From an uncultured archaeon (lineage in GTDB: Archaea; Asgardarchaeota; Lokiarchaeia; Sigyniarchaeales; SOKP01), in assembly GCA_964486045.1 (NCBI GenBank), contig CAZALK010000001.1, forward strand, positions 680,242-744,241: 64,000 nucleotides of DNA, written 5' to 3'. The translations under genes and the position numbers were made by a program. Positions 2,255 through 24,702 of the stretch are shown piece by piece (position 1 is the stretch's first letter; every line of letters begins with the position of its first letter). The notes under the pieces were generated by a model, which worked only from the letters and a program-made list of their open reading frames with translations, was not told the DNA's origin and made no database searches.

Positions 2255-2704
2255 TTATTTTAAATATTTAGGAAGGAAAACAACGCAGTTGAACTTATTC
2301 AAATATACAATAACATAATTAACCAACCGTTTAATTTTTCGTTTAGCTTCAGATAAATTCTTGTTACTATATTCAGCAAAGCCTTTTGGCCCTATGGCGA
2401 CTAGAACACCACTCAAATCTTTTTCTCTTTTAATAAAAAACCAAAATGGCATTTTTTTTTCATTATCTTTAATGACTATAAGCATCCAAGGATTTAATGT
2501 CCAATCGGTTTTATCTGGGCTTAAAACCTTTTCTATCGCCTTTTTGGTAAGAAACTTTTTCGTCATCTTTATTGATTTTAGGAGAGCATTAAAAAAGCTT
2601 CTCTTTATTTTTAAATATCCCCCAAAATAAACTTTCGCATCAAATAATTCAAGTTCTTTATCTGTTCCATCTGAAAACTTTAAAAAAACCTTCCAAAGAC
2701 TCAT
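2255..2704 (-). CDS. Hypothetical protein
   Basis: 149-aa ORF overlapping the upstream ORF by 4 nt (ATGA coupling). Confidence 0.65.
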   Translation of the reverse strand: MSLWKVFLKFSDGTDKELELFDAKVYFGGYLKIKRSFFNALLKSIKMTKKFLTKKAIEKVLSPDKTDWTLNPWMLIVIKDNEKKMPFWFFIKREKDLSGVLVAIGPKGFAEYSNKNLSEAKRKIKRLVNYVIVYLNKFNCVVFLPKYLK

Positions 2705-3147
2705 GATTTAGAAACTTTTCCATTATGTAATCCAATTTCTTCTATTTCTACTTTTTTAAATATATTTTTTATTTTTTCAAGTGAAGTTTTTAAATCTTTA
2801 CTTCTTTTTTCAGAAAGGCTTAAATTTAGATAACACTCATACAGCAACTGTCTCTCAATTTTTAAAAATCCGGATGTATGAATAACTTGAAATTTTTGAA
2901 GTAATTTTGAGATCTCTTTTATTATTTTGTTTGATAGCTTTAAACTGCACAGACTAACTTTAATAATTTTTTCTTTATTTATAGGATAAATTGCTAACTT
3001 GATCGAATTTTCAATGGACGATTGAACAATAAGGAGATATCCACAATCATATAAATTTTTAAACGACACTATCGGAATTTTTAAACATGCATAAGTAAAT
3101 TCATTTATCTGTTGAATAAAAGCATTTGTTATGTTTGAATTTTCCAT
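2701..3147 (-). CDS. Hypothetical protein (possible ACT-like C-terminal domain)
   Basis: 148-aa ORF downstream of RNase P genes; IHTSGF...YECYL beta-alpha pattern. Confidence 0.6.
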   Translation of the reverse strand: MENSNITNAFIQQINEFTYACLKIPIVSFKNLYDCGYLLIVQSSIENSIKLAIYPINKEKIIKVSLCSLKLSNKIIKEISKLLQKFQVIHTSGFLKIERQLLYECYLNLSLSEKRSKDLKTSLEKIKNIFKKVEIEEIGLHNGKVSKS

Positions 3148-9897: not shown

Positions 9898-10161
9898 TCA
9901 TTTACCCTTTGATGCATTTTCTAGCTGATTCTTTAATTTGAGCCCTCTTTCTGTTAAGAAATGCTCTTTTTTGACTACTTTAATGAGGTTTAATTCTAAT
10001 AAGACGGGTATTCTTCCTTTAACACATGAAATTGGTAACCCTGAAAATAATCTAATTATTTCATAATTCTTTGCTCCTTTATCAATTGCAAATAATATTT
10101 CAATTCCCATATAACCTAAAAGATTTTTTAAATCTTCTTTAGATTCTTCTCCATTAATCAA
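9898..10161 (-). CDS. Small winged-helix protein
   Basis: HTH followed by wing pattern L.LI......LTERG. Confidence 0.7.
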   Translation of the reverse strand: MINGEESKEDLKNLLGYMGIEILFAIDKGAKNYEIIRLFSGLPISCVKGRIPVLLELNLIKVVKKEHFLTERGLKLKNQLENASKGK

Positions 10162-10224: not shown

Positions 10225-11442
10225 CTAATTACTACTGGTTTCATTTGAGTTTAAATCATCGATGCTTACTAAAGGGGATTTATCATCTTCCTTCTCAGTA
10301 TCCTTTAATTTAGGACTGTAATTGTTGGCGACAACGGGTTCAGACTCCTTTGGTAATAGTTTTCTCATCCATTCCGGAAAGGCAGTAGTAATTTGCAAGT
10401 TTGTCTTTAAGACTATATACATTTCACTATCATAATTAATTTCTTCAATTACGTCGTATTTCTTCAGAAATTCAATATTTTCCATTAATGAGTCTAGAGA
10501 CTTCTTTGAAACTAATTTTGGAAGTTTATCTTTTGAAATAAGTCCATTTCTTAACTCAGTAAGAACATTATACTTTTTAGGATCAGCCATTATCTGAAAT
10601 AGAGTAAATATATCTTCTTTTATTTCTTCAATGTTTTTTTTTTCATATTCACTAAAGTAATCTTGGACTTTTGGTAACAGTAATTCTATTAATTCAGGTT
10701 TATCATCTATATACTCTATTACACTATCCGGGGGTATTCTCTCTGCATTTACTTCCTTTAATAGAAGTACATATTTTTCTACTAGACCGATTTGATTTAT
10801 GAAAATGAATTGCCTATCTACTAAAGTTTTAATAATTTCATCGAAATCTTTATTTGGAAAATCCTCGATAAACCCTTCTCTTAGCCACTCCAGAGGTATT
10901 GGACCCTTTGATAACCTTTCTAAAGTTTCAAACATGTGTTTGTCATTCATTAAAATTGCTATTTTCTCTTCTTCAGTTTTTTCTCTTATATCTTCAATGA
11001 TAGTCCAGTATAAATTAATTAACCATGCCTTTACAAGGGCCTCATTCTTTATTATTATCTCTTTTTCATTTTCATGATAATTTACATCGTTAATATAAAA
11101 TGCCGTGTAAATTTCTTCATTTGATTGCAACTGCTCTGAGAATTCAATACATAGTTCTGATATTTTTTCCTCGATTTCTGGTAAAATTTGTTGATCGAAA
11201 ACCGCTGATACCATTAACATTTCCTTATTTCCACGAGCCCAATCAGAGTGAATTTCAAAATAGTAATTCATTGATTTTAAATTTTCAAAAGAGTGAGTAA
11301 AAAAACCTTCACTAAATTGTTGATCCATGATATTCGCTATTTTAACTGATAAATCTTTGCTTAAAGAATTTTTTGGGTATGAATAAAATACTAAAGGTCC
11401 GATCTTACGATGAAAATATGATATGGCTACAATAGTCTTCAA
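10225..11442 (-). CDS. Longin/uDENN domain protein with two winged-helix domains (NPRL2/FLCN-like)
   Basis: N-terminal FHRKIGPLVFYSYP resembles NPRL2 FHPTLGPKITYQVP; FEIHSDWARG resembles FLCN FFIKDSLARG; two C-terminal wHTH-like segments. Confidence 0.7.
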   Translation of the reverse strand: MKTIVAISYFHRKIGPLVFYSYPKNSLSKDLSVKIANIMDQQFSEGFFTHSFENLKSMNYYFEIHSDWARGNKEMLMVSAVFDQQILPEIEEKISELCIEFSEQLQSNEEIYTAFYINDVNYHENEKEIIIKNEALVKAWLINLYWTIIEDIREKTEEEKIAILMNDKHMFETLERLSKGPIPLEWLREGFIEDFPNKDFDEIIKTLVDRQFIFINQIGLVEKYVLLLKEVNAERIPPDSVIEYIDDKPELIELLLPKVQDYFSEYEKKNIEEIKEDIFTLFQIMADPKKYNVLTELRNGLISKDKLPKLVSKKSLDSLMENIEFLKKYDVIEEINYDSEMYIVLKTNLQITTAFPEWMRKLLPKESEPVVANNYSPKLKDTEKEDDKSPLVSIDDLNSNETSSN

Positions 11443-11654
11443 TTAGCGAATCTCCATTACGATTTTTCTTTTATATAAGCACTACAGCTATTTTTTAATG
11501 TTTAACCTAAAATAAATTAATATTAAAGATTATATATTATTAAAGATAAATAAATTTATCTTAACTCAACCTCTAATATCTTTAGGCAAATAAAATACGC
11601 AGTTTTTTTATTTTACTCTTTAAAATCTAATAAATAGAAAGGTTAGAATTAAAT

Positions 11655-12392
11655 ATGTGCCCAATAAAACTAATTGGATTCGATCTTGATGATTGTCTGT
11701 TTGACTCCACAAGATTATCTGATAGGGCTAGAATTAAAGGGATTGACGCAATGATTAACTTAGGTTTAAAAATCGATAGAAATGAAGCAATTCGGACAAT
11801 TTATGATATAGTGCTAGAATACGGTTCAAATTTTTCAAAACACTATAATTTCTTCATTCGAAGATTAAACCAATTAAATGAAAATATAGAATTTATCAGT
11901 TATAATGACCGATATAAATTTATTGCCGCAGCAGTTATGGCTTATCATGAAGAAAAAGTAAATTCAATAAAGTTATATGATGATGTTGAAATCTGTCTTA
12001 AAAAATTAAAGGATTCAGAAATTAAAACTGCAATTATTACTGATGGATTACCAATAAAACAATATGAGAAGATTTTGAGACTTAAAATTGATAATCTTTT
12101 CGATTTAATAATTATATCAGACGAAATTGGAATAAAAAAGCCAAACCCCGAGTTATTCAAATACTGGTTAAAGAAGTTTAATGTCAAAGGTGAAGAAGTT
12201 ATATATATAGGAGATCGAATTGATAAAGATATCTTTCCAGCAAATTTAAATAATATTCATAGTGTTTATCTTCATAGGGGAGGAAAACATGATAAATATG
12301 ATGACAATATAAAAAATGAGGGCCAATTCAAGCCAGATTATGAAATTACTAACTTAAATGAATTATTTGATATAATTCATGAAATCTCATAA
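11655..12392 (+). CDS. HAD-superfamily hydrolase (archaeal TIGR02253-type)
   Basis: FDLDD, ITDG, KKP, IGDR..KD motifs. Confidence 0.92.
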   Translation: MCPIKLIGFDLDDCLFDSTRLSDRARIKGIDAMINLGLKIDRNEAIRTIYDIVLEYGSNFSKHYNFFIRRLNQLNENIEFISYNDRYKFIAAAVMAYHEEKVNSIKLYDDVEICLKKLKDSEIKTAIITDGLPIKQYEKILRLKIDNLFDLIIISDEIGIKKPNPELFKYWLKKFNVKGEEVIYIGDRIDKDIFPANLNNIHSVYLHRGGKHDKYDDNIKNEGQFKPDYEITNLNELFDIIHEIS

Positions 12393-12418
12393 TAAAGAAA
12401 TTAGAGAATAGTCAAAAA

Positions 12419-13231
12419 ATGAAAATAGCGTGTATTCAGCCCCAAATATTGCAAGAAAGAAGTCAGTGTTACCTCGAAATTGAAAAAACTTTAAAGAAGT
12501 TAATTGAAAAACATAATAAGACTGAAATAATTTGTTTACCAGAAAAGTGGGTTCCCTTTTCCAAGAATTTAAACGAAATTCTTCAAGAGGAGCGAGGAGA
12601 TGACTACATTTTCTTTAAAAATTTGGCTAAAAAATATAACATCAAAATAATATCTGGAGCGATTTGGGAAAATAGAGATAGTTCTGAAAAACCAGCAATT
12701 ACTTGCTATCTTATTGATGAGAATGGTGAGGAGATTGGTAGACAAGATAAGATCCACCTTTATGCATATGAACAAGAACTGTTCGAACCAGGAAACGTGT
12801 TAAATCTATTTAAAATAGAAAAATCGTATTGTTTTGCAATTCTCATATGCTTTGATATGGCTTTTTTTGAAACCCCTCGTGTAGCTGTCGAAAATGGAGC
12901 GGATATTTTATTTTCCCCAACTCAAATAGGGGAGGATGGAATGTTTAATTGGGACATTTATTTAAAAGCGCGGGCTCTAGAAAATCGGGTACCTATTGTA
13001 GCATGTAACACTTTTGGTAGGCATCTTCGAAGAGTGTTTCGTGGAGAAAGCAAAATTATATCATTTCTAAAAGGAAGTGTATCTCCTTCAAAATTAAAAA
13101 TATCAGAAGGGCCTAGTGGTTCAAGCGGGTTTATTTTTGATGATATTGATTTAGATTTTCCAAGAAAGCTTAGAAAAATTCGATTAAATGAAAAAATTGA
13201 CAAAAATAAAATTAAAGTGAAGAAAATTTAG
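12419..13231 (+). CDS. Carbon-nitrogen hydrolase (nitrilase family)
   Basis: LPE, KIHL, ICFD catalytic triad; ARALEN. Confidence 0.92.
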   Translation: MKIACIQPQILQERSQCYLEIEKTLKKLIEKHNKTEIICLPEKWVPFSKNLNEILQEERGDDYIFFKNLAKKYNIKIISGAIWENRDSSEKPAITCYLIDENGEEIGRQDKIHLYAYEQELFEPGNVLNLFKIEKSYCFAILICFDMAFFETPRVAVENGADILFSPTQIGEDGMFNWDIYLKARALENRVPIVACNTFGRHLRRVFRGESKIISFLKGSVSPSKLKISEGPSGSSGFIFDDIDLDFPRKLRKIRLNEKIDKNKIKVKKI

Positions 13232-13253
13232 GTTAAAAATAATATAAAGGAAC

Positions 13254-14210
13254 ATGAAAAATTCTATAGAATTACAAAAAATTCTATTTACAGGCCTAGA
13301 AGACGGAGGGAAAACTTCAATTCTTTTATCATTAGATAAAAAATTTAGTTTATTGCCCACAGTTCAACCCACAATAAAAACAAAGAGAACTTTTTATACA
13401 AACTCATTATTAGGAATTCAAATTACCCGGTGGGATTTAGGAGGTCAAAAATTATATAGAAAAATATATATCAATGAAAAAAGTAAATACTTTACTGAAA
13501 CACAATCTATTTTTTATGTAATTGATATTCAATCACCACGTAAATTTGAGGAAGCTTTAATATATCTCAAAGATATTATTAATGCTGTTTCAGAAAATCA
13601 TGTTAAAAATTTTCAGCTTTTAATATTACTCCATAAATTTGATCCAGATATTAAAAGCAGGAGTGATATAATTGAGAATCAAAATTTTCTCGAGTCCCAA
13701 ATTACAAAAATTATTGGAAATTTAAAATTTTCGATTTATAAAACTTCAATTTATGATGTAGCCACATTATTAAAAGCTTTTTCTGATGGAGTTTTTTATG
13801 CCACACATAAATCTAAAATGTTTCAAGCACTATTAAAGGATTACATGGGAAAAACATTCAATAGTGTTACACTCTTATTAGATCAGAATTGTTTTATCAT
13901 TGCCAGTAGATCTACGAATGAAGATTATCAAAGAATTTGTGAAGAGATTGCTCCACGACTAACTCAAGCTCTTGAAAAACTCGAAGAATGGGCAATAAAT
14001 ACTATTGATATAGTTACAACAATCGAATTTCCAGAAAAGCACTCAGATTTCCAAAAAAAAGGTATTATTTTTCTTAGGAAACTAGATATTACTAATACAA
14101 GATTCTATCTTATTGCTCTTTGCTTAAATAAAAATGTTAAACTCAGGGCGTATGAATATTTACCTTTATTAGCAGATAATTTAAAGAACTTATTAGAAAG
14201 TTTTGAATAA
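13254..14210 (+). CDS. Rag/Gtr-like small GTPase with C-terminal roadblock-like domain
   Basis: G1 GLEDGGKTS, G3 WDLGGQ, G4 HKFD, G5 TSIYD (Rag-type); C-terminal LLDQNCFIIAS roadblock pattern. Confidence 0.85.
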   Translation: MKNSIELQKILFTGLEDGGKTSILLSLDKKFSLLPTVQPTIKTKRTFYTNSLLGIQITRWDLGGQKLYRKIYINEKSKYFTETQSIFYVIDIQSPRKFEEALIYLKDIINAVSENHVKNFQLLILLHKFDPDIKSRSDIIENQNFLESQITKIIGNLKFSIYKTSIYDVATLLKAFSDGVFYATHKSKMFQALLKDYMGKTFNSVTLLLDQNCFIIASRSTNEDYQRICEEIAPRLTQALEKLEEWAINTIDIVTTIEFPEKHSDFQKKGIIFLRKLDITNTRFYLIALCLNKNVKLRAYEYLPLLADNLKNLLESFE

Positions 14211-14430: not shown

Positions 14431-15624
14431 ATGACCTTTATGCTCGATTTTGATCAACGTTTTGTGGGACCAAAAGCAATTTTTGACCCAAATTTTATTC
14501 CTCCTCAATTGTTGTTTAGAAAAAAAGAAATTATATCATTGAATTCTATTTTAACTGACTCTCTTTCTGATGGATTTTGCCTTAATATACTCTATCAAGG
14601 AATTAATGGAATAGGGAAAAAAGTAATAGCTAACAAAGTTATAGATGATCTCTCAAGAGAAAATAACGGATACAATGATATTCATAAAGTGTTTATAGAT
14701 TGTAAGGAGAAAAATTTTGAAGAATTGACATTTTCTGTATTAAACGACTTGGTTAATATTTCTAAACTTGATTTTAATTTTGAATCCCTCCTGAACTCAA
14801 ATCTGTCACATTTATGGAATGTCTTTAAATTAATCTGCAAAAAAACTGATCTTAACCTTTTCTTTATTTTTGCTAATGTAGAACATTTAAAACCAGATAT
14901 ATTTAAAAAATTTCTCCACCTTGGAAAAGAAAATAATATCACCTCAATTTATACTATCAACAAAATACTGCGACCAACAACAATCGATATCCTATCTGAA
15001 TTTGATTTAAAAAAAAAGTTGAGTTATTTTTCTTACAAAGAACTGTTTTCTATTCTGAAACAAAGAGTTTTATTGACTTTTTCACATGAAGTAGATGAAG
15101 ACCTCATTAAATATATTACAGATTTAATTTGTGAGCAATATGTTCCAGTCCCAGGAAAAGGAATAGAAATAATAAGAGATATATATCCCATATTAAAAGA
15201 AAATCAAATTATATGTGATTTTAGGTTAATAGAACTGTGCCAGAGTCATTTTGACCATATGCAAATTAATGATGAATTTTCTATGTTGAATTATATGTCT
15301 GAAAAAGATTTTTTAAATATCATATTTTTAGACAATCTCTCAAATTATTTTATAAGTAATATGAATTACTACATCGCATTAAATGAACTTGAAGAGATTT
15401 ACAGTATATCTTGTGAATCTTTAGAATATGTAAAGAATATGAATGAATTTCATGATATAATTAAAGAATTATCAAGTATAGGAATATTAAGACCATCGAA
15501 GAAATCTCAAAAGAAAAAAATTTCATCTTTCTTTGATAATTCCGCAAATACCGACTCCTACTTTATGGTTATAAGTCCAAATCAATTAAAAGCTCTTATT
15601 GATACTTTATTTGAAAGATATTAA
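14431..15624 (+). CDS. Divergent Orc1/Cdc6-family protein, probably ATPase-inactive
   Basis: FDPNFIPPQLLFRKKEI N-terminal signature, AAA+ lid (YKELFSILKQR), C-terminal wHTH; Walker A GINGIGKK, Walker B FANVE. Confidence 0.8.
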   Translation: MTFMLDFDQRFVGPKAIFDPNFIPPQLLFRKKEIISLNSILTDSLSDGFCLNILYQGINGIGKKVIANKVIDDLSRENNGYNDIHKVFIDCKEKNFEELTFSVLNDLVNISKLDFNFESLLNSNLSHLWNVFKLICKKTDLNLFFIFANVEHLKPDIFKKFLHLGKENNITSIYTINKILRPTTIDILSEFDLKKKLSYFSYKELFSILKQRVLLTFSHEVDEDLIKYITDLICEQYVPVPGKGIEIIRDIYPILKENQIICDFRLIELCQSHFDHMQINDEFSMLNYMSEKDFLNIIFLDNLSNYFISNMNYYIALNELEEIYSISCESLEYVKNMNEFHDIIKELSSIGILRPSKKSQKKKISSFFDNSANTDSYFMVISPNQLKALIDTLFERY

Positions 15625-15795
15625 TTATATTTGATGGAAACTTAATTCTTTAAATCAAAGTGAGGAATTATAAGCGGGAAACTCTATCAAAAATCAAAGG
15701 CAATTTGAGTTTTTTTATATTTACGACATGCCTATTATATATATATTGGGAATTACTCTATTTTTTATAATAAAGGTAGCAAATGGAGATTAATT

Positions 15796-18700
15796 TTGAC
15801 TTACATTAAAAAAATATCCATGACTGGTTTCAAATCATTTGGAGACCGTACCGTAACAATAAAACTCTCAAGTGGTTTTACTTGCATAGTGGGGCCTAAC
15901 GGGGCTGGAAAATCCAATATTATTGATGCCTTGTGCTTCGCCTTAGGAAGATTAAGTAAGAAAACAATGAGAGCCAAAAGCCTGGAAGATTTGATTTTTG
16001 CTGGATCTCGTGGTAAGAATCCTTCCCAAAGAGCATCAGTCACGATGTTTTTTGATAACTCTGATAATATTTTTCCAGGAGGTACTGATACTTTTGAGAT
16101 TACTCGTACAATAAAAAGAGGAGGGGGCGGTGGTTACAAGATGAATGGAACAAAGTCTACCCGCCAACAAATTCTGAATGCATTAGCCGCCGCAAATATT
16201 GATCCTGATGGCAGCAATCAATTTGTCTTACAAGGAAAGATCGTTGAGTTAACTCATATGAATGCTGAAAGACGAAGATTTTTCATTGAAGACCTTATAG
16301 GACTTCAAAAATACGATGAAATGAAAGATTCTACATTGAAAGAACTAGAAAAAGCAGAAAGAGATTTGGGGCAATTTGAAGCAATTTTCAATGAAGTATC
16401 GTCTCAACTTAAAAAAGTTGAAAAAGAGAAAAATGACGCGCTATTATGGAAGGAGTTTGATGAGCAAATAAACTCTTTAAATTCTCAGTTAATTGCATTA
16501 AAAATATTAAAATTGAGGGATGAAGAAGATGATTTGGAAAAGAAAATTGAATCTTCTTTAAAAATTACTGAAGAATTAAAGGAAAAAATTAATCGACAAG
16601 AATCTTTACTTACACAAGAATCACTTGTTATGGATAACATTCAAACAACAATAAACGAGAAGGAAAAGGAAAAAGAAGAAATAACTGAGGTTATTACTCA
16701 ACTAAAAACCAAAATTTCTTCCAACCAAACAACATCAAACATCGCTGAACAATCAATAGCAAAAGTGCATAAAGAAATAGAAAATCTAACAAAAATGCAA
16801 ATGAAACTCGAACAAGGTCAAACTATTGATATCTTAATGGAAGGTGTTGTATATGATATTAATGAATGCGAAAATAAAATCGAAGAAGCTAAGAAAGAAA
16901 TCGAGAAAAGACAACAAACCCAATCAGAGCTAGATTCTAAAATAAAAAATAATGAAGAAGAAAAATCATTATTCAATAGTGACATCTCAAAAATACGACA
17001 AGATATTTCATCAAATAATGCTCAAATTAAAGTGTTAAAGGATAACATCAAGAAGAATGAAGATAAGAAGGTTAAGTTAGAGGTTGAATTGAATAAACTA
17101 AAAAAAGACGCTGAAAGTATAGATGAAGCTATTGATGATGCAAAGAAGGTAGAAAAAGTAATAAGATCACAGATAAATAATTTAAAAACTCAACTCGTTG
17201 AGGAAAATCAGAAACAAAAAGATTTGGAGAAACAAATAAATAATTTTCAAGAAGCTAAAAATCAATTAAATACAAAATTGATAAATTTACAATCTAATCT
17301 ATCATCTCTTAATACAGAGATTAATATGAATAACGGGAGTATTCAAGATTTAAACACTAAGAAGACAGATATTGAAACAAAAATTCAGGAATTGAGTAAA
17401 GGTAAAGATACAGAGGTAGTAGTAAAAGAACTATTAAGTCAGAATGAGAAAGTAAATAAGGAAATAAATGAACAAAAAGGAAAATTAAAAAAAAAAAACT
17501 CAAACTATAAAAAAAATGAGCAAGCCCTAGAACTGCTAAAAGTGAAAAAAGAATCTTTTGGATCTGAACTTAATGATAATAAAGGAAAAATAGATACCCT
17601 AAGCACAGAAGTAAAAATATTTACAAAAGAATATACGAAACTTGAACGAGAAAAAAATAGCTTAGATTTACAGGTAAACACATTAAATAAAAATATTTTA
17701 AATATAGAAGATGAATTAGAGAAATTTAGTCGAAAAAAGGATAATGTCCAAGGACGCTTAGAAGACCTTTCAAAAGAGAAAGAAAATTTATTAAAGAAAG
17801 TAGAATCTTCCGAAATGGAATATGAGAAGAACGCTACAGATATTACTGGAATTCTACAGATATTAAATATGCTTACTCAAAACATTAATATCTCGGTTGA
17901 ATCCATTAAAGGTAATATACAACAATCTAATGCAGAGGCAATCGAGACATCTGCTGAAGATTTTAAAAAATATGTTTTGGATATTGTCGACATTATGAAA
18001 ACAGTTGAAGAACTTGGTAGTGAAACAGAACAAGTAACTGAAACGTCAATGATGCTCAAGTCTATTATGAAAACTCTAAAATTGTTCACTGATAATGCCG
18101 ATGGTACGATTTTTCAATTAATTGAGAAAGTTAAAGAATCAGCAGATGTAGAAATTCAATCTTCCACAATGACTTTTGATAATTTCGTTCAAGATCTCAT
18201 GGAAATCCTCGAAAATGTCTATATTTCTCTAAGAAAATTAACTATGTCGAAAAGTCAAGAATTATATAAACAATTGGAGGAAATATCTGAAAATATCAAC
18301 TCCCAAACTGGTGATTTTAATCTTATAGAAAAGAGATTAACAGAAATTAATATCCAAACAAAATTCTATACTGAAAATGCTTCATCAATTAATCGTAGAC
18401 TTGATGAAATCAACAAAAGGAATCTGGAATTAAATGAGAGAATTTCAAAATCAAATCAAGAAATAAATGTAAGAACTGGTGTTATAAACGAGAGGAAAAA
18501 GGAGAAAGAAAATATTGAGCAAGAAATACAAAAATTAGAGGGTATTAAAGAGACTTTTTGGGATGATATATCGAAAATCCAAGATAATATTGAGAAAAAA
18601 CAATTAGATTTAGAAAATTCAAGAGATAAATTGCACGAATTACATGGAATCCAAAATTTGTTTGAGAATATAGTGGAAATCGAAGAAAATATCCAAAAAC

Positions 18701-20250
18701 TAAATAGCATAATTGATGAAAAGAAAAATATAATCATTAATACACAAGAAATTATAGAAAAGTATCAAGAGGAACAAAATTCATTACAAAATGATATTGA
18801 TGCTCTCGCTTTAAAAAAAGATAATTTTTGGGAAATGACAAGTAGTATTCAGAAACAGATAGGAGATAGAAATAAAGAACTAGAAGAAGTCATGGATCGA
18901 TTGAGAGCACTTGAAAATGTTATGAGGACAATTAACACAATTGAAGACATAACAAATGAAAATGTTGAAGCAAAAGATAATATTGAAATTAGTCTAAAAC
19001 AAATAAATGAGTTTAATTCTCAAGTAGATGAAATACAAACTAAAGTAGATCAAACCCAAAAGATAGTAGATTCACTCAGAAATGAAAAAATTAAGGAATT
19101 AGAATCACAAAAGAGTGCCCAAAAAGAATTAAATAAAATTAATAAGGATTTACAAAAACACCAAAAAAAATTAAATGAGTTAAATAAAAATAAGGAAAGA
19201 GAGCAAAAAATTGTTGAATTGAATCAAGAGATAGTAGAGACTGAAAAGCAAATACGATCGGTATTAAAAGAATTGGAATCTTTTAGAGGTGAGTTGGATT
19301 CAGAAAGTGTGAAAAAAGATGCCAAACAAGATGAAATTGATAGATTAGCCAAAGAAAAGGATAATTCTTGGAAGAAACAGAAACAACATCAAAAAATGAT
19401 TTCTGATTTTAAGTCAGATCTTTCAATGGAAAATTCTAAGAAGAACAATTTTGAATCCAAAAAAATCATCTGCGCTGATCAAATAGAAACATACTTCCAA
19501 AGATCTAAGGAATATGGTTCTTTACCACCTGTTACTGAAGACCTCTCGGAAGGTGAATTGCAATCAGATATTGTTGAAGCAACAAATAATAAAAAAGTCC
19601 TTGAACCTGTTAATTTAAAGGCAATTGAACAATATGATGCAGTAAAGGAAAGATTTGATGAAATTGACATGCGTAGGCAAACAATTCAGAGAGAAAGGAA
19701 ATCAATTCTAGATGCTATAGATAAAATTGAGCTGGAAAAAACGCGTACATTCATGAAATCTTATCATGAAATAAATCGTGAATTTTCACGGGTATTTCAG
19801 AAATTATCTCCAGGAGGTTCAGCAAAAATGATACTAGATCGTCCCGATAAACCGTTTGAAGGAGGAATTAGTATAGAAGCGAGACCAAGAGGTAAAAAGA
19901 TTAGTTCACTTGAAATTTTAAGCGGTGGTGAAAAAACGCTCGTGGCTCTCTCATTTATCTTTGCCGTCCAGGAATTCTATCCCGCGCCTTTTTACGTTTT
20001 AGATGAGATCGATGCGGCTCTCGATGGTCCTAATGTACACAGAACGTCTGTGGTCATACAGGAATTTTCAAAACAAGCGCAATTCTTGGTTATTAGTCAT
20101 AGAGAGGAGAATATCGTAAATTCTGATAGAATTTATGGCGTCACTATGCAACAATCAGGCGTAACAGATATCTTTAGTGTCGATTTGGAGGAAGAAGCAA
20201 AACGGTTATTAGATCTTGAAGATATCGAGCCTACCATTGCAGAAAACTAA
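15796..20250 (+). CDS. smc: Chromosome segregation ATPase Smc (extended arms, non-canonical hinge)
   Basis: GFKSF, GPNGAGKSN, Q-loop VLQG, LSGGEK, LDEIDAALD, ISH; long coiled coils. Confidence 0.93.
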   Translation: MTYIKKISMTGFKSFGDRTVTIKLSSGFTCIVGPNGAGKSNIIDALCFALGRLSKKTMRAKSLEDLIFAGSRGKNPSQRASVTMFFDNSDNIFPGGTDTFEITRTIKRGGGGGYKMNGTKSTRQQILNALAAANIDPDGSNQFVLQGKIVELTHMNAERRRFFIEDLIGLQKYDEMKDSTLKELEKAERDLGQFEAIFNEVSSQLKKVEKEKNDALLWKEFDEQINSLNSQLIALKILKLRDEEDDLEKKIESSLKITEELKEKINRQESLLTQESLVMDNIQTTINEKEKEKEEITEVITQLKTKISSNQTTSNIAEQSIAKVHKEIENLTKMQMKLEQGQTIDILMEGVVYDINECENKIEEAKKEIEKRQQTQSELDSKIKNNEEEKSLFNSDISKIRQDISSNNAQIKVLKDNIKKNEDKKVKLEVELNKLKKDAESIDEAIDDAKKVEKVIRSQINNLKTQLVEENQKQKDLEKQINNFQEAKNQLNTKLINLQSNLSSLNTEINMNNGSIQDLNTKKTDIETKIQELSKGKDTEVVVKELLSQNEKVNKEINEQKGKLKKKNSNYKKNEQALELLKVKKESFGSELNDNKGKIDTLSTEVKIFTKEYTKLEREKNSLDLQVNTLNKNILNIEDELEKFSRKKDNVQGRLEDLSKEKENLLKKVESSEMEYEKNATDITGILQILNMLTQNINISVESIKGNIQQSNAEAIETSAEDFKKYVLDIVDIMKTVEELGSETEQVTETSMMLKSIMKTLKLFTDNADGTIFQLIEKVKESADVEIQSSTMTFDNFVQDLMEILENVYISLRKLTMSKSQELYKQLEEISENINSQTGDFNLIEKRLTEINIQTKFYTENASSINRRLDEINKRNLELNERISKSNQEINVRTGVINERKKEKENIEQEIQKLEGIKETFWDDISKIQDNIEKKQLDLENSRDKLHELHGIQNLFENIVEIEENIQKLNSIIDEKKNIIINTQEIIEKYQEEQNSLQNDIDALALKKDNFWEMTSSIQKQIGDRNKELEEVMDRLRALENVMRTINTIEDITNENVEAKDNIEISLKQINEFNSQVDEIQTKVDQTQKIVDSLRNEKIKELESQKSAQKELNKINKDLQKHQKKLNELNKNKEREQKIVELNQEIVETEKQIRSVLKELESFRGELDSESVKKDAKQDEIDRLAKEKDNSWKKQKQHQKMISDFKSDLSMENSKKNNFESKKIICADQIETYFQRSKEYGSLPPVTEDLSEGELQSDIVEATNNKKVLEPVNLKAIEQYDAVKERFDEIDMRRQTIQRERKSILDAIDKIELEKTRTFMKSYHEINREFSRVFQKLSPGGSAKMILDRPDKPFEGGISIEARPRGKKISSLEILSGGEKTLVALSFIFAVQEFYPAPFYVLDEIDAALDGPNVHRTSVVIQEFSKQAQFLVISHREENIVNSDRIYGVTMQQSGVTDIFSVDLEEEAKRLLDLEDIEPTIAEN

Positions 20251-20316: not shown

Positions 20317-23300
20317 TTAGATTCCTTTTCTGCATTTCCTACAAGGTTCAATGTTTTGGTTAACTAACCGTTTAAAGTATTTGGGGGTTATAGTAAACTG
20401 ATGTTGCCTCTGACATGTAATCTGTACTTTTTTAGTGTTGTTTACGTATTCAGAGAGGAGTTTATATTTCAAAAATTCGATCATCTGGACCAATTCTTTT
20501 TTAGCGGTTTGTAGTCGTTCTTTATTCGGATGGTTTTCATCTGCACAGATTTTACACCATCTTCCTTGGTATACAGCACCGGGGGTGGTGTTCCATTTGT
20601 GGTTTTTGTTACATTTTATAGTGATAGGTTTGAACCGTCCACTATACTGGGTAACAAGCTCCCCTCCCCTTTTCCTAACAAAGTGTTGAAATTTTTCAGC
20701 AAATACATCCCTATTGCATTTAGGGCACAGAATCTCAATTTTTTTAAAGTCCTTTTTTAACCAATACGGTGATTTTTCAAATTTATGTCCTTTCTGACAC
20801 CTGTATGTTATTAGGGTTTTAGCATTAACGTACTCACTAATTAAATCACAATTAAACATTTTCCCTATTTTTTGAAAAAACACTGTTGTCCCTTTCATAT
20901 TTCCCGCACATTCTGAACACCAGTTACCCATGTATACAGAATTTGGGGTGGTTGTCCACTGATGTCCTTTTTCACACATGAGAGTTACTTCTTTTCTCGC
21001 TGAGAAATAGGGTGTTATTAAAGCTCCGTCTTTCTTTTTGACATATGTTCTAAATTTTTCAGCATATTCATTTTCATGAATAATGAATTCTTTATAATCA
21101 TATCTAGGGATGTTTTTAAGAGTTTTTCCACTTATCCTTTCATATTCTTTTATAATATATTCTTGCATTTTATCGTAAGGTACAATTTCATCATCAGGAA
21201 TTTGAAGTAAAACTACATTGTTTTCTCCACATTTTTTTAATTTTAGAGCATCCTCTCTCATAATCTTTTGGAGTTCTTCATCTGTCATGCCAAAAGCTTT
21301 CTTCCGATGTTGTATTCCCTGATATTCAAATGCTAATCTTAAGTCTTTGCTATTTCCATCGAGTTCCATTTGATTACCGTTCTCATTAGTTAGCCACTCA
21401 GGATAACTTTTTGGAAAGGGTCTTTTAAAAAGCTTTTCAAAAAACCTTCTACAAATTGTCTCACTAATATATATATGACAATCCGGGCACCATGTATTAG
21501 AATAAACCACGCTATTATATGTAGTAAAAAAGTGATGTCCTTCAGCGCATTCAAGGTGTAGTTTCGACTTGGCATTTTTTAAGACTTTTGTATGACATTT
21601 CCCACCCTTTTTTTCTGCAATTTTCATTACAGTATCTATTGAAACATGTTTCTGTGTTCGGACATATTGCTGATATTCCTCTTTAGTTAAAATCCTATTT
21701 AATTGATTTCGAGTGGAGGTATCGCTTAACAAAAGCCATTCTTGTATATCGTATGCGTTATATTTCCCTGGATTCTCCAAAATTTGTGTTTTAATCACTT
21801 TATTCAAGATGTCATTATCTCTAATTTTTATTATTAGATCAGAAAAATTCAGGAGTACTTTTATCTGATCTTTAATAGAGTTAGTTTTATCATCTGTAGA
21901 AAAATTCACTAATTGTGTTTGTTTCACCTTTACAAAGTTTATAAAAGTCTTGGTTGGACGGAAATTTTTTATCCAATTACCAGATTTGTTAAATTCTGTA
22001 ATAAATTGTTTTATTAACTGATTTTCATGTATATAATGTAAAAATTCTTCAAATAGATCATACTCTTTCACATACGATTGTGAATATTGTTTGTTGAGGT
22101 AAGTAACTAACATATTTTTTTTTATATATTCATAATAATCCCAGCCCCATTTTACGTAGTTTTTAGTATGCTTTTCAAATGCATCTCCAAAAATTCCGAT
22201 TAATTGATTAATATGAAGTTTTTTCAAAATTGAAGCTATAATTTTTATATCTTTGTCAGTAAGGTCTTTTTTTCGTATTATTTGGTTCAATTGTGATTTA
22301 GACTCTTCACTTAATTCTTCTATAGATGTTAGCTTATGTCTTAATAATTCCTTCCAGTCTTTACTGACCAAGGATAGATTTTCATTTTTTCCTCTTTTTT
22401 CAGTTTCTTTAAGTTTCTTTAATTTTTGAGTTAGATGCGTGGTGAATCTTAGTTTTTCAGCAAGAATTTCATGTTTAAACCACCTAATTTTATTATTATA
22501 AAATGTTTGAAAAGCGCTCAGGTTTTTAAACATTTCTTCTTGGATATTAGTCATTTTTTCAAGCTTTTTACTTAAATTCTCAATTATTTCAATGTCGTCA
22601 TTTGTAGGGTTTGCTTTATTCAATAATTTAATTAATTTCTCGTATAACAGTCTATAGTAACGATATTTCTGAATTATATCTATCAATTCTTTTTTGTTTT
22701 CCCCTGAAATATCATCTTCATTAGCTTGTTGAATCCAATTCTCTAGTAGAACTTCCCAGTTTTCTTTTGATTTTTCAATTTCTTTTTTCACCTTCTTCTT
22801 TTGAGCTAAATTCTTTTGTTTCTCCAACCATTTTAAAAATTCTTTGGTTTCTTTTTTAGCATAAAGGGGTCTTTTACCTGTGTCCTGACGGTATTTCTGT
22901 TGTAGCTCTTTTTTCATTTCTTTGTTTTTTTGACTTTTCTGGTTGCTTTTTTGACGCTGTTGAGTAATAATCTTGCTTGTTGATGTTGGTTTTTGTGGTT
23001 GTATTTCATTTTTTAGAAGTTTATCCTTTTTTTTATTAGATTTCTCACTGGGTATTTTTTTAACAACCTTTTTATTTTCAGAAGAAATTTTTTTTTCAGA
23101 TTTTTCCGCTGGTTTTTTTGCTTGCTTTTTAATAAGCTCCGATTCCCCAAATTCCTTAGGATCGGTAATTAGTTCTAGACTTATTACTCTCTTAGGTCTC
23201 TTTTTCTGGGATGATTTTTCAGACGTCTCCTTTTTATTTACAGATTCTTCAGATTTTTTTTGACTATTAGCAGTTTTCGATTCACCAAGCTCTCCGGGAT

Positions 23301-24702
23301 CAGTTGCTAACTCAAGATGCTTTACTTTTATTTTTATTTTTTTTGAGTTTTTCGTTGTTTTTTTTGTTTTCTTTTCCGATTTTTTAGGATGGTTTTGAGG
23401 TAATTTGTAGTCATATTTTGTATTAACTATATGACTATATTCATAATGTTTATAATCCCCAAGCTCCTCGGGATCTGTGATGACCTCAAGTTGCTTGATT
23501 TTCTCCGGTTTTTTTTTGGGAGTTTTTTGTGGTTTCTTTTTTTTTGTCTTCTTCTCTTGTTTTTGAGGTTTCTTATGAGAAAAAATATAGTCGTACTTTG
23601 TTCCAACTATATGACTATATTCATAATGTTTATAATCCCCAAGCTCCTCAGGATCAGTAATTAATTCTAGCTCTTTAGCCTTAATTCGCTTTTTTTTCTG
23701 TTCTCTCTTTTGGATTTGTTCAGGAACTAGCTCAGGTTCTTGTTTGGGAGACTGTTCAGATTCTTGCTCAGATATTAATTCAGGTTCTTGTTTAGGAGTC
23801 TGTTCAGATTCTGGGGATATTTCCCCTTGCTGTTGATCATACATTTTTTCAAGCAAATCTTCAAGAGGTATTAATTCTGGGTCTGGTTGATGAGGAACAG
23901 GCTCCCCATTATCAGGATTTATGAGCTCCAGTTCTTCAAGTTCTCTTTCAGCTTCTTGTTCGGGCTCATTTTCAGATTTTACCTCAGGAGTTTGAGCAAT
24001 TTCATTTTCTGCTGTTTGATCCGATTCGATCTCACGGTCTTCCTCTGTTTCATAATCTCTTTCTGGATAAGTTGGAATGCCCATTTCCTCTAAATCTCCA
24101 AACATTTCAGTAACTTTTTGGGGATCTGCAGGAGGCATAGGTTCACCATCGGGATAAACCAATTCCGGATCTTCTTCAGATTGTTCTGAATCTTGGTCAT
24201 GTTCGCTTTCAGATTCTTCCTCAGGTTCATGGTCAGTTTCTTGATCTGGTATTTGATCAGGTTCATTGTGAATCGTAATAGTAACAGTTCCAGAATGATT
24301 TGGGTTGAGATTTCCATCAGAGTCTGATCCTAGATCATCATTAGGTTTTTCTTCGTTTGGGTTGAAGCTCTCTTCCTCTGGAATCTCATCTGATTCATCT
24401 ACATTGGGATTAAAATCATCCTCATCTGGGATTTCATCTGACTCATCTACATTTGGATTAAAATCATCCTCATCCGGGATTTCATCTGACTCATCTACAT
24501 TTGGATTAAAATCATCCTCATCCGGGATTTCATCTGACTCATCTACATTGGGGTTGAAGGAATCTTCATCTAAGGTCTCATCGGATTTATCAGAAATCTT
24601 TCCTTCCTCAGCTTCATCAGGACTATCTCCACTTTTTAAGGAGTGAATAATTTCAGGTCTATCGGGTCCAATATCGGAATCTAAAAAATCTAGATCTGTC
24701 AA
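20317..24702 (-). CDS. Large repeat-rich protein with C-terminal repeated Zn-ribbon modules and PD-(D/E)xK-type endonuclease
   Basis: Acidic then Lys-rich low-complexity N-terminus; five C-x2-(G/N/Q)H...C-x2-C modules; ELDG...LAFEYQGIQH nuclease motif. Confidence 0.8.
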   Translation of the reverse strand: MTDLDFLDSDIGPDRPEIIHSLKSGDSPDEAEEGKISDKSDETLDEDSFNPNVDESDEIPDEDDFNPNVDESDEIPDEDDFNPNVDESDEIPDEDDFNPNVDESDEIPEEESFNPNEEKPNDDLGSDSDGNLNPNHSGTVTITIHNEPDQIPDQETDHEPEEESESEHDQDSEQSEEDPELVYPDGEPMPPADPQKVTEMFGDLEEMGIPTYPERDYETEEDREIESDQTAENEIAQTPEVKSENEPEQEAERELEELELINPDNGEPVPHQPDPELIPLEDLLEKMYDQQQGEISPESEQTPKQEPELISEQESEQSPKQEPELVPEQIQKREQKKKRIKAKELELITDPEELGDYKHYEYSHIVGTKYDYIFSHKKPQKQEKKTKKKKPQKTPKKKPEKIKQLEVITDPEELGDYKHYEYSHIVNTKYDYKLPQNHPKKSEKKTKKTTKNSKKIKIKVKHLELATDPGELGESKTANSQKKSEESVNKKETSEKSSQKKRPKRVISLELITDPKEFGESELIKKQAKKPAEKSEKKISSENKKVVKKIPSEKSNKKKDKLLKNEIQPQKPTSTSKIITQQRQKSNQKSQKNKEMKKELQQKYRQDTGKRPLYAKKETKEFLKWLEKQKNLAQKKKVKKEIEKSKENWEVLLENWIQQANEDDISGENKKELIDIIQKYRYYRLLYEKLIKLLNKANPTNDDIEIIENLSKKLEKMTNIQEEMFKNLSAFQTFYNNKIRWFKHEILAEKLRFTTHLTQKLKKLKETEKRGKNENLSLVSKDWKELLRHKLTSIEELSEESKSQLNQIIRKKDLTDKDIKIIASILKKLHINQLIGIFGDAFEKHTKNYVKWGWDYYEYIKKNMLVTYLNKQYSQSYVKEYDLFEEFLHYIHENQLIKQFITEFNKSGNWIKNFRPTKTFINFVKVKQTQLVNFSTDDKTNSIKDQIKVLLNFSDLIIKIRDNDILNKVIKTQILENPGKYNAYDIQEWLLLSDTSTRNQLNRILTKEEYQQYVRTQKHVSIDTVMKIAEKKGGKCHTKVLKNAKSKLHLECAEGHHFFTTYNSVVYSNTWCPDCHIYISETICRRFFEKLFKRPFPKSYPEWLTNENGNQMELDGNSKDLRLAFEYQGIQHRKKAFGMTDEELQKIMREDALKLKKCGENNVVLLQIPDDEIVPYDKMQEYIIKEYERISGKTLKNIPRYDYKEFIIHENEYAEKFRTYVKKKDGALITPYFSARKEVTLMCEKGHQWTTTPNSVYMGNWCSECAGNMKGTTVFFQKIGKMFNCDLISEYVNAKTLITYRCQKGHKFEKSPYWLKKDFKKIEILCPKCNRDVFAEKFQHFVRKRGGELVTQYSGRFKPITIKCNKNHKWNTTPGAVYQGRWCKICADENHPNKERLQTAKKELVQMIEFLKYKLLSEYVNNTKKVQITCQRQHQFTITPKYFKRLVNQNIEPCRKCRKGI
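23415..23670 (-). repeat. Two-copy coding direct repeat (ITDPEELGDYKHYEYSHIV.TKYDY), 180-bp spacing
   Basis: actatatgactatattcataatgtttataatccccaagctcctc at about 23426 and 23606. Confidence 0.9.
24358..24570 (-). repeat. 48-bp coding tandem repeat (NPNVDESDEIPDEDDF, about 4.5 copies)
   Basis: ctcatcYgggatttcatctgactcatctacattKggattaaaatcatc repeated head-to-tail. Confidence 0.95.

Follow-up and report, generated by a model that had tools for sequence, protein, structure and literature searches.

The 64,000-nt stretch analysed here (the window, to whose positions all coordinates refer, with the strand in brackets) belongs to a contig of an uncultured lokiarchaeial genome (CAZALK010000001.1). 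On opposite strands and 1812 bp apart, it carries the gene of a 405-aa protein in which a longin domain is followed by two winged helix-turn-helix (wHTH) regions, and the gene of a Rag-like small GTPase. A sequence-only reading had proposed that the two form a GTPase-activating protein (GAP) and substrate of the GATOR1/folliculin (FLCN) kind, a possible precursor of TORC1 nutrient signalling. NPRL2 (Npr2 in yeast) is the catalytic subunit of GATOR1 (SEACIT) and acts through Arg78 as a GAP for RagA/B (Gtr1), folliculin-FNIP is the GAP for RagC/D (Arg164), and SMCR8-C9orf72 is an Arf GAP (Arg147). The longin open reading frame with its arginine codon and the GTPase gene with its HKFD and TSIYD motifs lie where that reading had placed them, and the features on which the argument turns are the following.

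10225..11442 (-), longin-wHTH-wHTH protein, 405 aa, NPRL2-like architecture, candidate arginine-finger GAP (open reading frame, model, structural matches)
10987..11442 (-), longin domain, residues 1-152, five strands and three helices (model secondary structure; VIA structural matches)
10735..10974 (-), winged helix 1, residues ~157-236 (model; together with the longin domain superposes on NPRL2 6-239, 6ces_N)
10381..10581 (-), winged helix 2, residues ~288-354 (model; generic ArsR/MarR-type matches only)
11395..11415 (-), F10-P16 loop with the GP motif (FHRKIGP, residues 10-16), main predicted GTPase contact (conservation, complex model)
11233..11235 (-), Arg70, candidate arginine finger in the beta4-beta5 loop (codon position, model, conservation)
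13254..14210 (+), Rag-like small GTPase, 318 aa, G domain ~1-186, candidate substrate (motifs, Pfam, profile matches, tree)

The longin protein and its Rag-like neighbour

The 405-aa protein has no match in Pfam or NCBIfam, its full-length profile retrieved nothing useful from the PDB sequences, and all that an atlas search yielded were unnamed Asgard clusters. Sequences of the longin alignment showed weak matches to Afi1 and Folliculin only, and the best PDB match of a longin-only profile was NPRL2, itself weak (E 0.23 over 34 residues of the GP region), with the GP motifs of the two aligned. The AlphaFold2 model (pLDDT, the predicted local distance difference test, 81.5; disordered tail from residue 368) is more telling. 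Its top Foldseek matches are GATOR1, FLCN and SEA chains (E 1e-5 to 8e-4), its best structural matches overall are NPRL2, NPRL3 and folliculin (Z ~13), and in VIA comparisons the GAP-class longins score Z 12-13.5 versus at most 10.6 for the SNARE, adaptor and TRAPP longins. The N-domain thus has the longin fold of the NPRL2/FLCN class that had been predicted for it. Two VIA matches tie for best, FLCN 8dhb_J (Z 13.5, root-mean-square deviation (rmsd) 2.8, 137 aligned), which covers the longin alone and ends at residue 153, and 9o5d_D (Z 13.5, rmsd 4.6, 177 aligned), which extends over model residues 1-216. The match to 6ces_N (Z 10.8, rmsd 4.7, 186 aligned) places longin and winged helix 1 on NPRL2 6-239.

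Residues 153-365, when folded alone, form two winged helices (pLDDT 91). Since NPRL2 and NPRL3 consist of a longin followed by winged-helix repeats (PMC3747258), the modelled architecture is NPRL2-like rather than FLCN-like. For the architecture, the earlier "FLCN/NPRL2-like" label therefore holds in its second half, together with the two predicted C-terminal wHTH regions, and fails in its first: membership in the folliculin family was rejected, as winged helices occupy residues 153-365, where FLCN (like the FLCN-FNIP and SMCR8-C9orf72 systems generally) has a DENN module. The isolated winged-helix pair, on the other hand, best matches ArsR/MarR/PadR regulators at a generic level (Z <=8.5) and did not retrieve NPRL2 or NPRL3 in the structure search, so that homology of the tail specifically to the NPRL2 tail is not established. 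Overall identity to NPRL2 is 10-15%.

Two marks of longin/DENN GAPs have been published, namely the GP motif and an arginine between beta4 and beta5 (PMC12290439; bioRxiv 10.64898/2026.01.05.697756), and the 405-aa protein has both. Like NPRL2, it starts with F-x4-GP, and its Arg70, included in FEIHSDWARGNKE (which begins at residue 62), lies in the modelled beta4-beta5 loop between strands 55-65 and 73-82. Across 25 orthologs of 33-83% identity, F10, G15, P16, W68 and R70 show no variation. Among 93 more diverse homologs of the domain, drawn from clusters below 50% identity, the arginine is retained in 85 (counted before Arg-less rows were excluded), the glycine of the GP motif in 91 and the proline in 90; the conservation of the arginine, a point on which the earlier proposal depended, is thereby confirmed.

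The gene starts with TTG. An in-frame ATG lies upstream, within 11443-11460, and its frame, open in some relatives (MEIHYL), ends here at a TAA immediately ahead of the TTG; a GGAG inside the same segment could serve as ribosome-binding site of the longin gene.

The GTPase carries the motifs GLEDGGKT (G1), WDLGGQ (G3), HKFD (G4) and TSIYD (G5), and matches the Pfam families Gtr1_RagA (E 2e-22) and Arf (E 4e-18). Its nearest solved relatives are the Asgard Rag-like GTPases 8yl2 (E 1e-56) and LokiRagM (8zla/9m28, E 9e-43), to which no regulator has been assigned, whereas a candidate GAP can be named here. Among eukaryotic structures RagA/Gtr1 (E 7e-25) ranks ahead of RagC (4e-13) and Arf6 (1.5e-10), and by these sequence comparisons the neighbour is a Rag-like GTPase, nearer RagA/Gtr1 than Arf, a further likeness to the NPRL2 system. 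Residues P39, T40 and Q65 are invariant. The C-terminal domain is probably roadblock-like: the profile match reaches into the RagA C-terminal domain (to position 224-241), but HHalign of the tail to free roadblocks gave 4.9%. The genome encodes ~15 Rag-like paralogs with similar switch motifs; no second Rag gene was found at this locus.

Conservation of the gene pair

The longin protein was detected (E<=1e-3) in all 41 genomes searched, with a full-length ortholog in 40. In 20 of the 24 genomes of the same genus both genes lie on one contig, 1.8-1.9 kb apart; in three of the other four they are split by contig ends, and in one the longin was not found. The pair is kept in three other families with different genes between its members. 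In one of these (f4, 4/4 genomes) longin and GTPase genes stand directly head-to-head, 130-365 bp apart, amid different flanking genes; two of the f4 genomes have lost the HAD hydrolase and nitrilase genes that separate the pair in the window (see below), and their GTPase gene still faces the longin gene. When 50 Rag-like sequences are placed in a tree, the 16 rows that stem from this locus fall into a single clade (99/99) that spans four families, from which it follows that the arrangement was already present in the order's ancestor. The linkage, judged from gene order and tree, is ancestral to the order, so the synteny comparison named beforehand as a check turned out in favour of the pair. 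Among the genomes compared, the linked clade was never found away from the longin gene on an unbroken contig; as a chance background, 1.5% of the genes of this genome lie within 2 kb of a Rag-like gene.

Association with small GTPases extends beyond this locus. Direct fusion to a P-loop GTPase is seen in 15 of 92 domain homologs, and this genome encodes 7 Arg-type paralogs, of which 4 have a small GTPase fused to them or less than 2 kb away, versus a background of 7.8%.

Among individual cases, two loci of this genome (G000, whose contigs carry C numbers), C6:92701-98373 and L112 on C12, encode fusions of Arg-type longins with a GTPase and with PAS/GAF sensory domains; the former is in two frames, split near 94188-94246, and the latter protein adjoins three GTPase genes. 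In other Asgard families (L127, L128, L131-L133) an Arg-type longin forms the C-terminal domain of response-regulator receiver proteins. In genome G068 (L129:4821-7233) a 454-aa Arg-type longin protein is encoded 122 bp upstream of a Rag-like GTPase gene on the same strand; this co-oriented pair occurs in 1 of 5 genomes of its order and is for that reason not counted as an independent conserved linkage.

Modelled complex and proposed function

A model of the complex, another of the checks named beforehand, was built from two copies of residues 1-362, the G domain (1-186), GTP and Mg. It reached an ipSAE of 0.73, a mark attained by 58 of 80 solved complexes and by 2 of 110 mismatched pairs, versus 0.00 for the best control; the runs share at least 91% of contacts, with partner pLDDT of at least 85. 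In the model one longin touches the GTPase through residues 10-16, helix 1 and residues 70-75, with G15 contacting Q65 (the catalytic glutamine) and R70 contacting P39 of switch I, and the second copy touches the interswitch region. Residues of the predicted interface show a pairwise identity of 0.73, versus 0.46 elsewhere. In the SMCR8-C9orf72 complex on ARF1 a two-longin cradle likewise holds the switch regions (PMC8213707), and in FLCN loop 10-16 and Phe10 form the RagC interface (PMC9473554); the geometry predicted here, with the F10-P16 loop at the GTPase interface and Arg70 at switch I, resembles the GAP-like one described for both of these complexes.

Taken with the motifs and the linkage, we consider it reasonably probable that the 405-aa protein is an arginine-finger GAP for lokiarchaeial Rag-like GTPases and that the neighbour is one ancestral substrate. 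Two longins, as a homodimer or possibly in a dimer with an arginine-less paralog, would form the cradle; the F10-P16 loop and helix 1 would grip switch I/II of the GTP-bound GTPase and hold Gln65, and Arg70 would be supplied in trans to the GTP site, presumably switching the GTPase off. The neighbour would be the co-encoded substrate inherited from the ancestor, several of the ~15 paralogs would probably be served too, and the winged helices may be a scaffold or partner-binding part, as in NPRL2/NPRL3.

A number of observations weigh against this proposal. Genera g2, g5 and g12-g15 and genome G180 yielded no linked GTPase, and the best Rag-like matches of 11 GTPase-less genomes fell into other clades of the tree. 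An exclusive longin-GTPase pair was rejected on account of these losses. The GTPase-less genomes keep Arg70 and the predicted interface (identity 0.79, versus 0.69 where the GTPase is present), so the longin protein must have other substrates or partners. Moreover, the HAD gene stands beside the longin gene in more genera than the GTPase gene does, and L15e, Rpp30 and Cdc6 genes also remain near the locus; with a more constant neighbour and a conserved regional gene order, adjacency alone is no proof of function, and some of the linkage is simply due to this conserved order. All this, together with the number of Rag-like paralogs with similar switch motifs, would suit a GAP that in reality acts on other Rag-, Arf- or Rab-like GTPases and for which the neighbour is a syntenic passenger. 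We nevertheless regard passenger status as unlikely, given that the linked clade has not been seen apart from the longin on an unbroken contig, that the GTPase stayed head-to-head with it in the two f4 genomes after HAD and nitrilase were lost, and that the complex with this very GTPase passes. The modelling itself calls for caution as well. The Arg70-P39 contact is a residue-level one, given without an Arg-phosphate distance; as GATOR1-Rag, FLCN-RagC and C9orf72-ARF1 have all been solved, the pass may reflect memory, and as near relatives of a genuine partner pass as well, it speaks for likeness and not for specificity. All three known longin GAP complexes are heterodimers (NPRL2-NPRL3 among them), whereas the homodimer here is modelled only, and at the sequence level the HMMER match to NPRL2 is confined to residues 3-36 and does not extend to Arg70 and NPRL2 Arg78. 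The model thus supports likeness to a longin GAP complex and is no demonstration of binding or specificity.

Catalysis is disputed by another explanation, in which an effector or GEF-like (guanine nucleotide exchange factor-like) longin dimer binds the GTPase as a non-catalytic platform, with the winged helices as its output, possibly through DNA binding. Most longin dimers are indeed GEFs or platforms (PMC10933270), the isolated winged-helix pair comes closest to ArsR/MarR/PadR regulators with no NPRL2 match, and small winged-helix and AbrB/ACT-like genes follow the longin gene. The winged-helix matches are, however, of the generic kind noted above, and 85 of 93 homologs retain the arginine, among them many that have no winged helices and are fused instead to GTPase, PAS or receiver domains; furthermore, the GP motif is reported in PMC12290439 to be specific to GAP longins and absent from GEF longins. 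We therefore hold a purely non-catalytic platform to be improbable. As to nutrient sensing, a dedicated GATOR1/FLCN-Rag pair ancestral to TORC1 signalling would accord with the NPRL2-like architecture, the RagA-like partner and the ACT-like gene found directly downstream of the longin gene in families f4, f3 and part of f2. Amino acids are common ligands of ACT domains, and this weakly ACT-like gene of several relatives is, by its sequence, the only nutrient hint. Support for its ACT identity is weak (atlas 0.79; NCBIfam E 7e-4, below the cut-off; no PDB match) and in this genome the gene lies elsewhere, the longin-GTPase pair is not obligatory, and no PI3/PI4-kinase domain (PF00454) was found in this genome, which is 99% complete. 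For Asgard archaea too, the absence of a TOR-type kinase is reported by Liu et al. (bioRxiv 10.1101/2020.10.19.343400). A TORC1 precursor consequently seems very unlikely; of the original proposal, the GAP-class longin and the Rag-like partner survive, and the step from them to TORC1, with no TOR-type kinase found and a pair that is not obligatory, finds little support.

Returning to a GAP for Rag-like GTPases as the preferred function, components of such a system have been described before. Asgard longins with a GP motif and arginine finger are already published, with the GTPase partner left open (PMC12290439), and NPRL2-like Asgard proteins were noted by Liu et al.; as far as these sources are cited here, they deal with the same motifs in the same phylum and, as in the present data, with two-component fusions, and differ in naming no GTPase partner and giving no gene linkage or complex model. 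Our literature search found no report of an order-wide pairing with one Rag clade, nor of a complex model. What appears to be new, judging from genomic linkage and modelling, is a named substrate for an Asgard arginine-finger longin. The locus would answer to two open questions, the substrate of these longins (raised in PMC12290439) and the matching of Asgard GTPases to GAPs by genome layout, described as difficult since they are rarely in operons (PMC10933270). It offers a candidate enzyme-substrate pair of two small proteins whose sequences predict solubility, linked throughout the order and backed by a complex model. If the proposal is true, the Rag off-switch chemistry of GATOR1 and folliculin is older than eukaryotes and TOR, although such activity alone would not demonstrate nutrient sensing.

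Arginine-less paralogs and neighbouring genes

A full-length paralog family without the Arg loop shares the longin-wHTH-wHTH layout (HHalign to the Arg-type family 100%, E 7e-41, 346 columns) and starts with W-D-x3-G. Members are also present throughout other Asgard families, where a longin-Arf GTPase gene frequently lies closely downstream, and this genome has six copies (L105-L110; contigs C7, C11, C17, C18 and C23). Of the six, three are encoded only a few bases behind genes for giant surface proteins of 1723, 1446 and 1254 aa, and one is fused to a membrane protein of 2307 aa as its cytoplasmic tail. For three copies a small GTPase gene is no more than 250 bp away. SMCR8 has a non-catalytic partner, C9orf72, with a W-D motif before its GP (PMC12290439; PMC8213707), and the similar start of the arginine-less family makes a catalytic/non-catalytic longin heterodimer possible. 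One may speculate, with considerable doubt, that Lokiarchaeia hold both halves of the GATOR1 catalytic core, as Arg-type and arginine-less longins of NPRL2/NPRL3 architecture, whose heterodimers would act as membrane-recruited GAPs for the linked RagA-like GTPase; in that event the pairing of a catalytic with a non-catalytic longin, and its Rag substrate, would be older than eukaryotes and TOR.

Elsewhere in the phylum, in families f10 and f21 (L051-L069), the gene of the arginine-less paralog, with one match per genome at the cut-off used, is immediately followed by a longin-Arf GTPase gene and a small coiled-coil gene. In family f9 it lies 0.4-3 kb from a longer longin-Arf GTPase.

The remaining features of the locus are listed below.

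11443..11654 (.), AT-rich divergent intergenic region (composition, gene orientation)
11655..12392 (+), HAD hydrolase of the TIGR02253 family (above cut-off), most constant neighbour (NCBIfam; locus comparison)
12419..13231 (+), carbon-nitrogen hydrolase of the nitrilase family, variable neighbour (Pfam; locus comparison)
9898..10161 (-), gene of a small (87-aa) winged-helix protein, 63 bp downstream of the longin gene, usually staying nearby (profile match; locus comparison)

The HAD, nitrilase and GTPase genes, separated by gaps of 26 and 22 bp, run divergently from the longin gene, and the AT-richness of the region between them and the gene orientation suggest a probable two-way promoter; a sigma-70 promoter scan, based on a bacterial model ill-suited to archaea, remained at chance level. 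A functional role for either hydrolase was rejected as unlikely, both being ordinary enzymes and the nitrilase gene being variable (missing at the locus in family f4 and most of f2); the HAD gene is probably a passenger. The divergent operon may not end with the GTPase gene, as the sequence-only reading had it; a Cdc6-like gene starts 220 bp further on, on the same strand.

This Orc1/Cdc6-like gene, divergent and with a degenerate P-loop, and an SMC gene occupy 14431-20250, and in family f1 both hold their position even without the GTPase. Beyond them (20317-24702) lies a 1461-aa open reading frame with acidic tandem repeats of ~16 aa at its N-terminus and repeated small Cys/His motifs plus a possible nuclease-like segment at its C-terminus. 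In f4, f3 and part of f2 the AbrB/ACT-like gene of the relatives, an Asgard gene of ~145 aa with possible AbrB and ACT parts, comes immediately after the longin gene or overlaps it (copies at L045:5304-5738, L034:5451-5876 and L043:8673-9116). Its best match in this genome is at C1:52367, not beside the longin gene, and a paralog lies in the window at 2701-3147.

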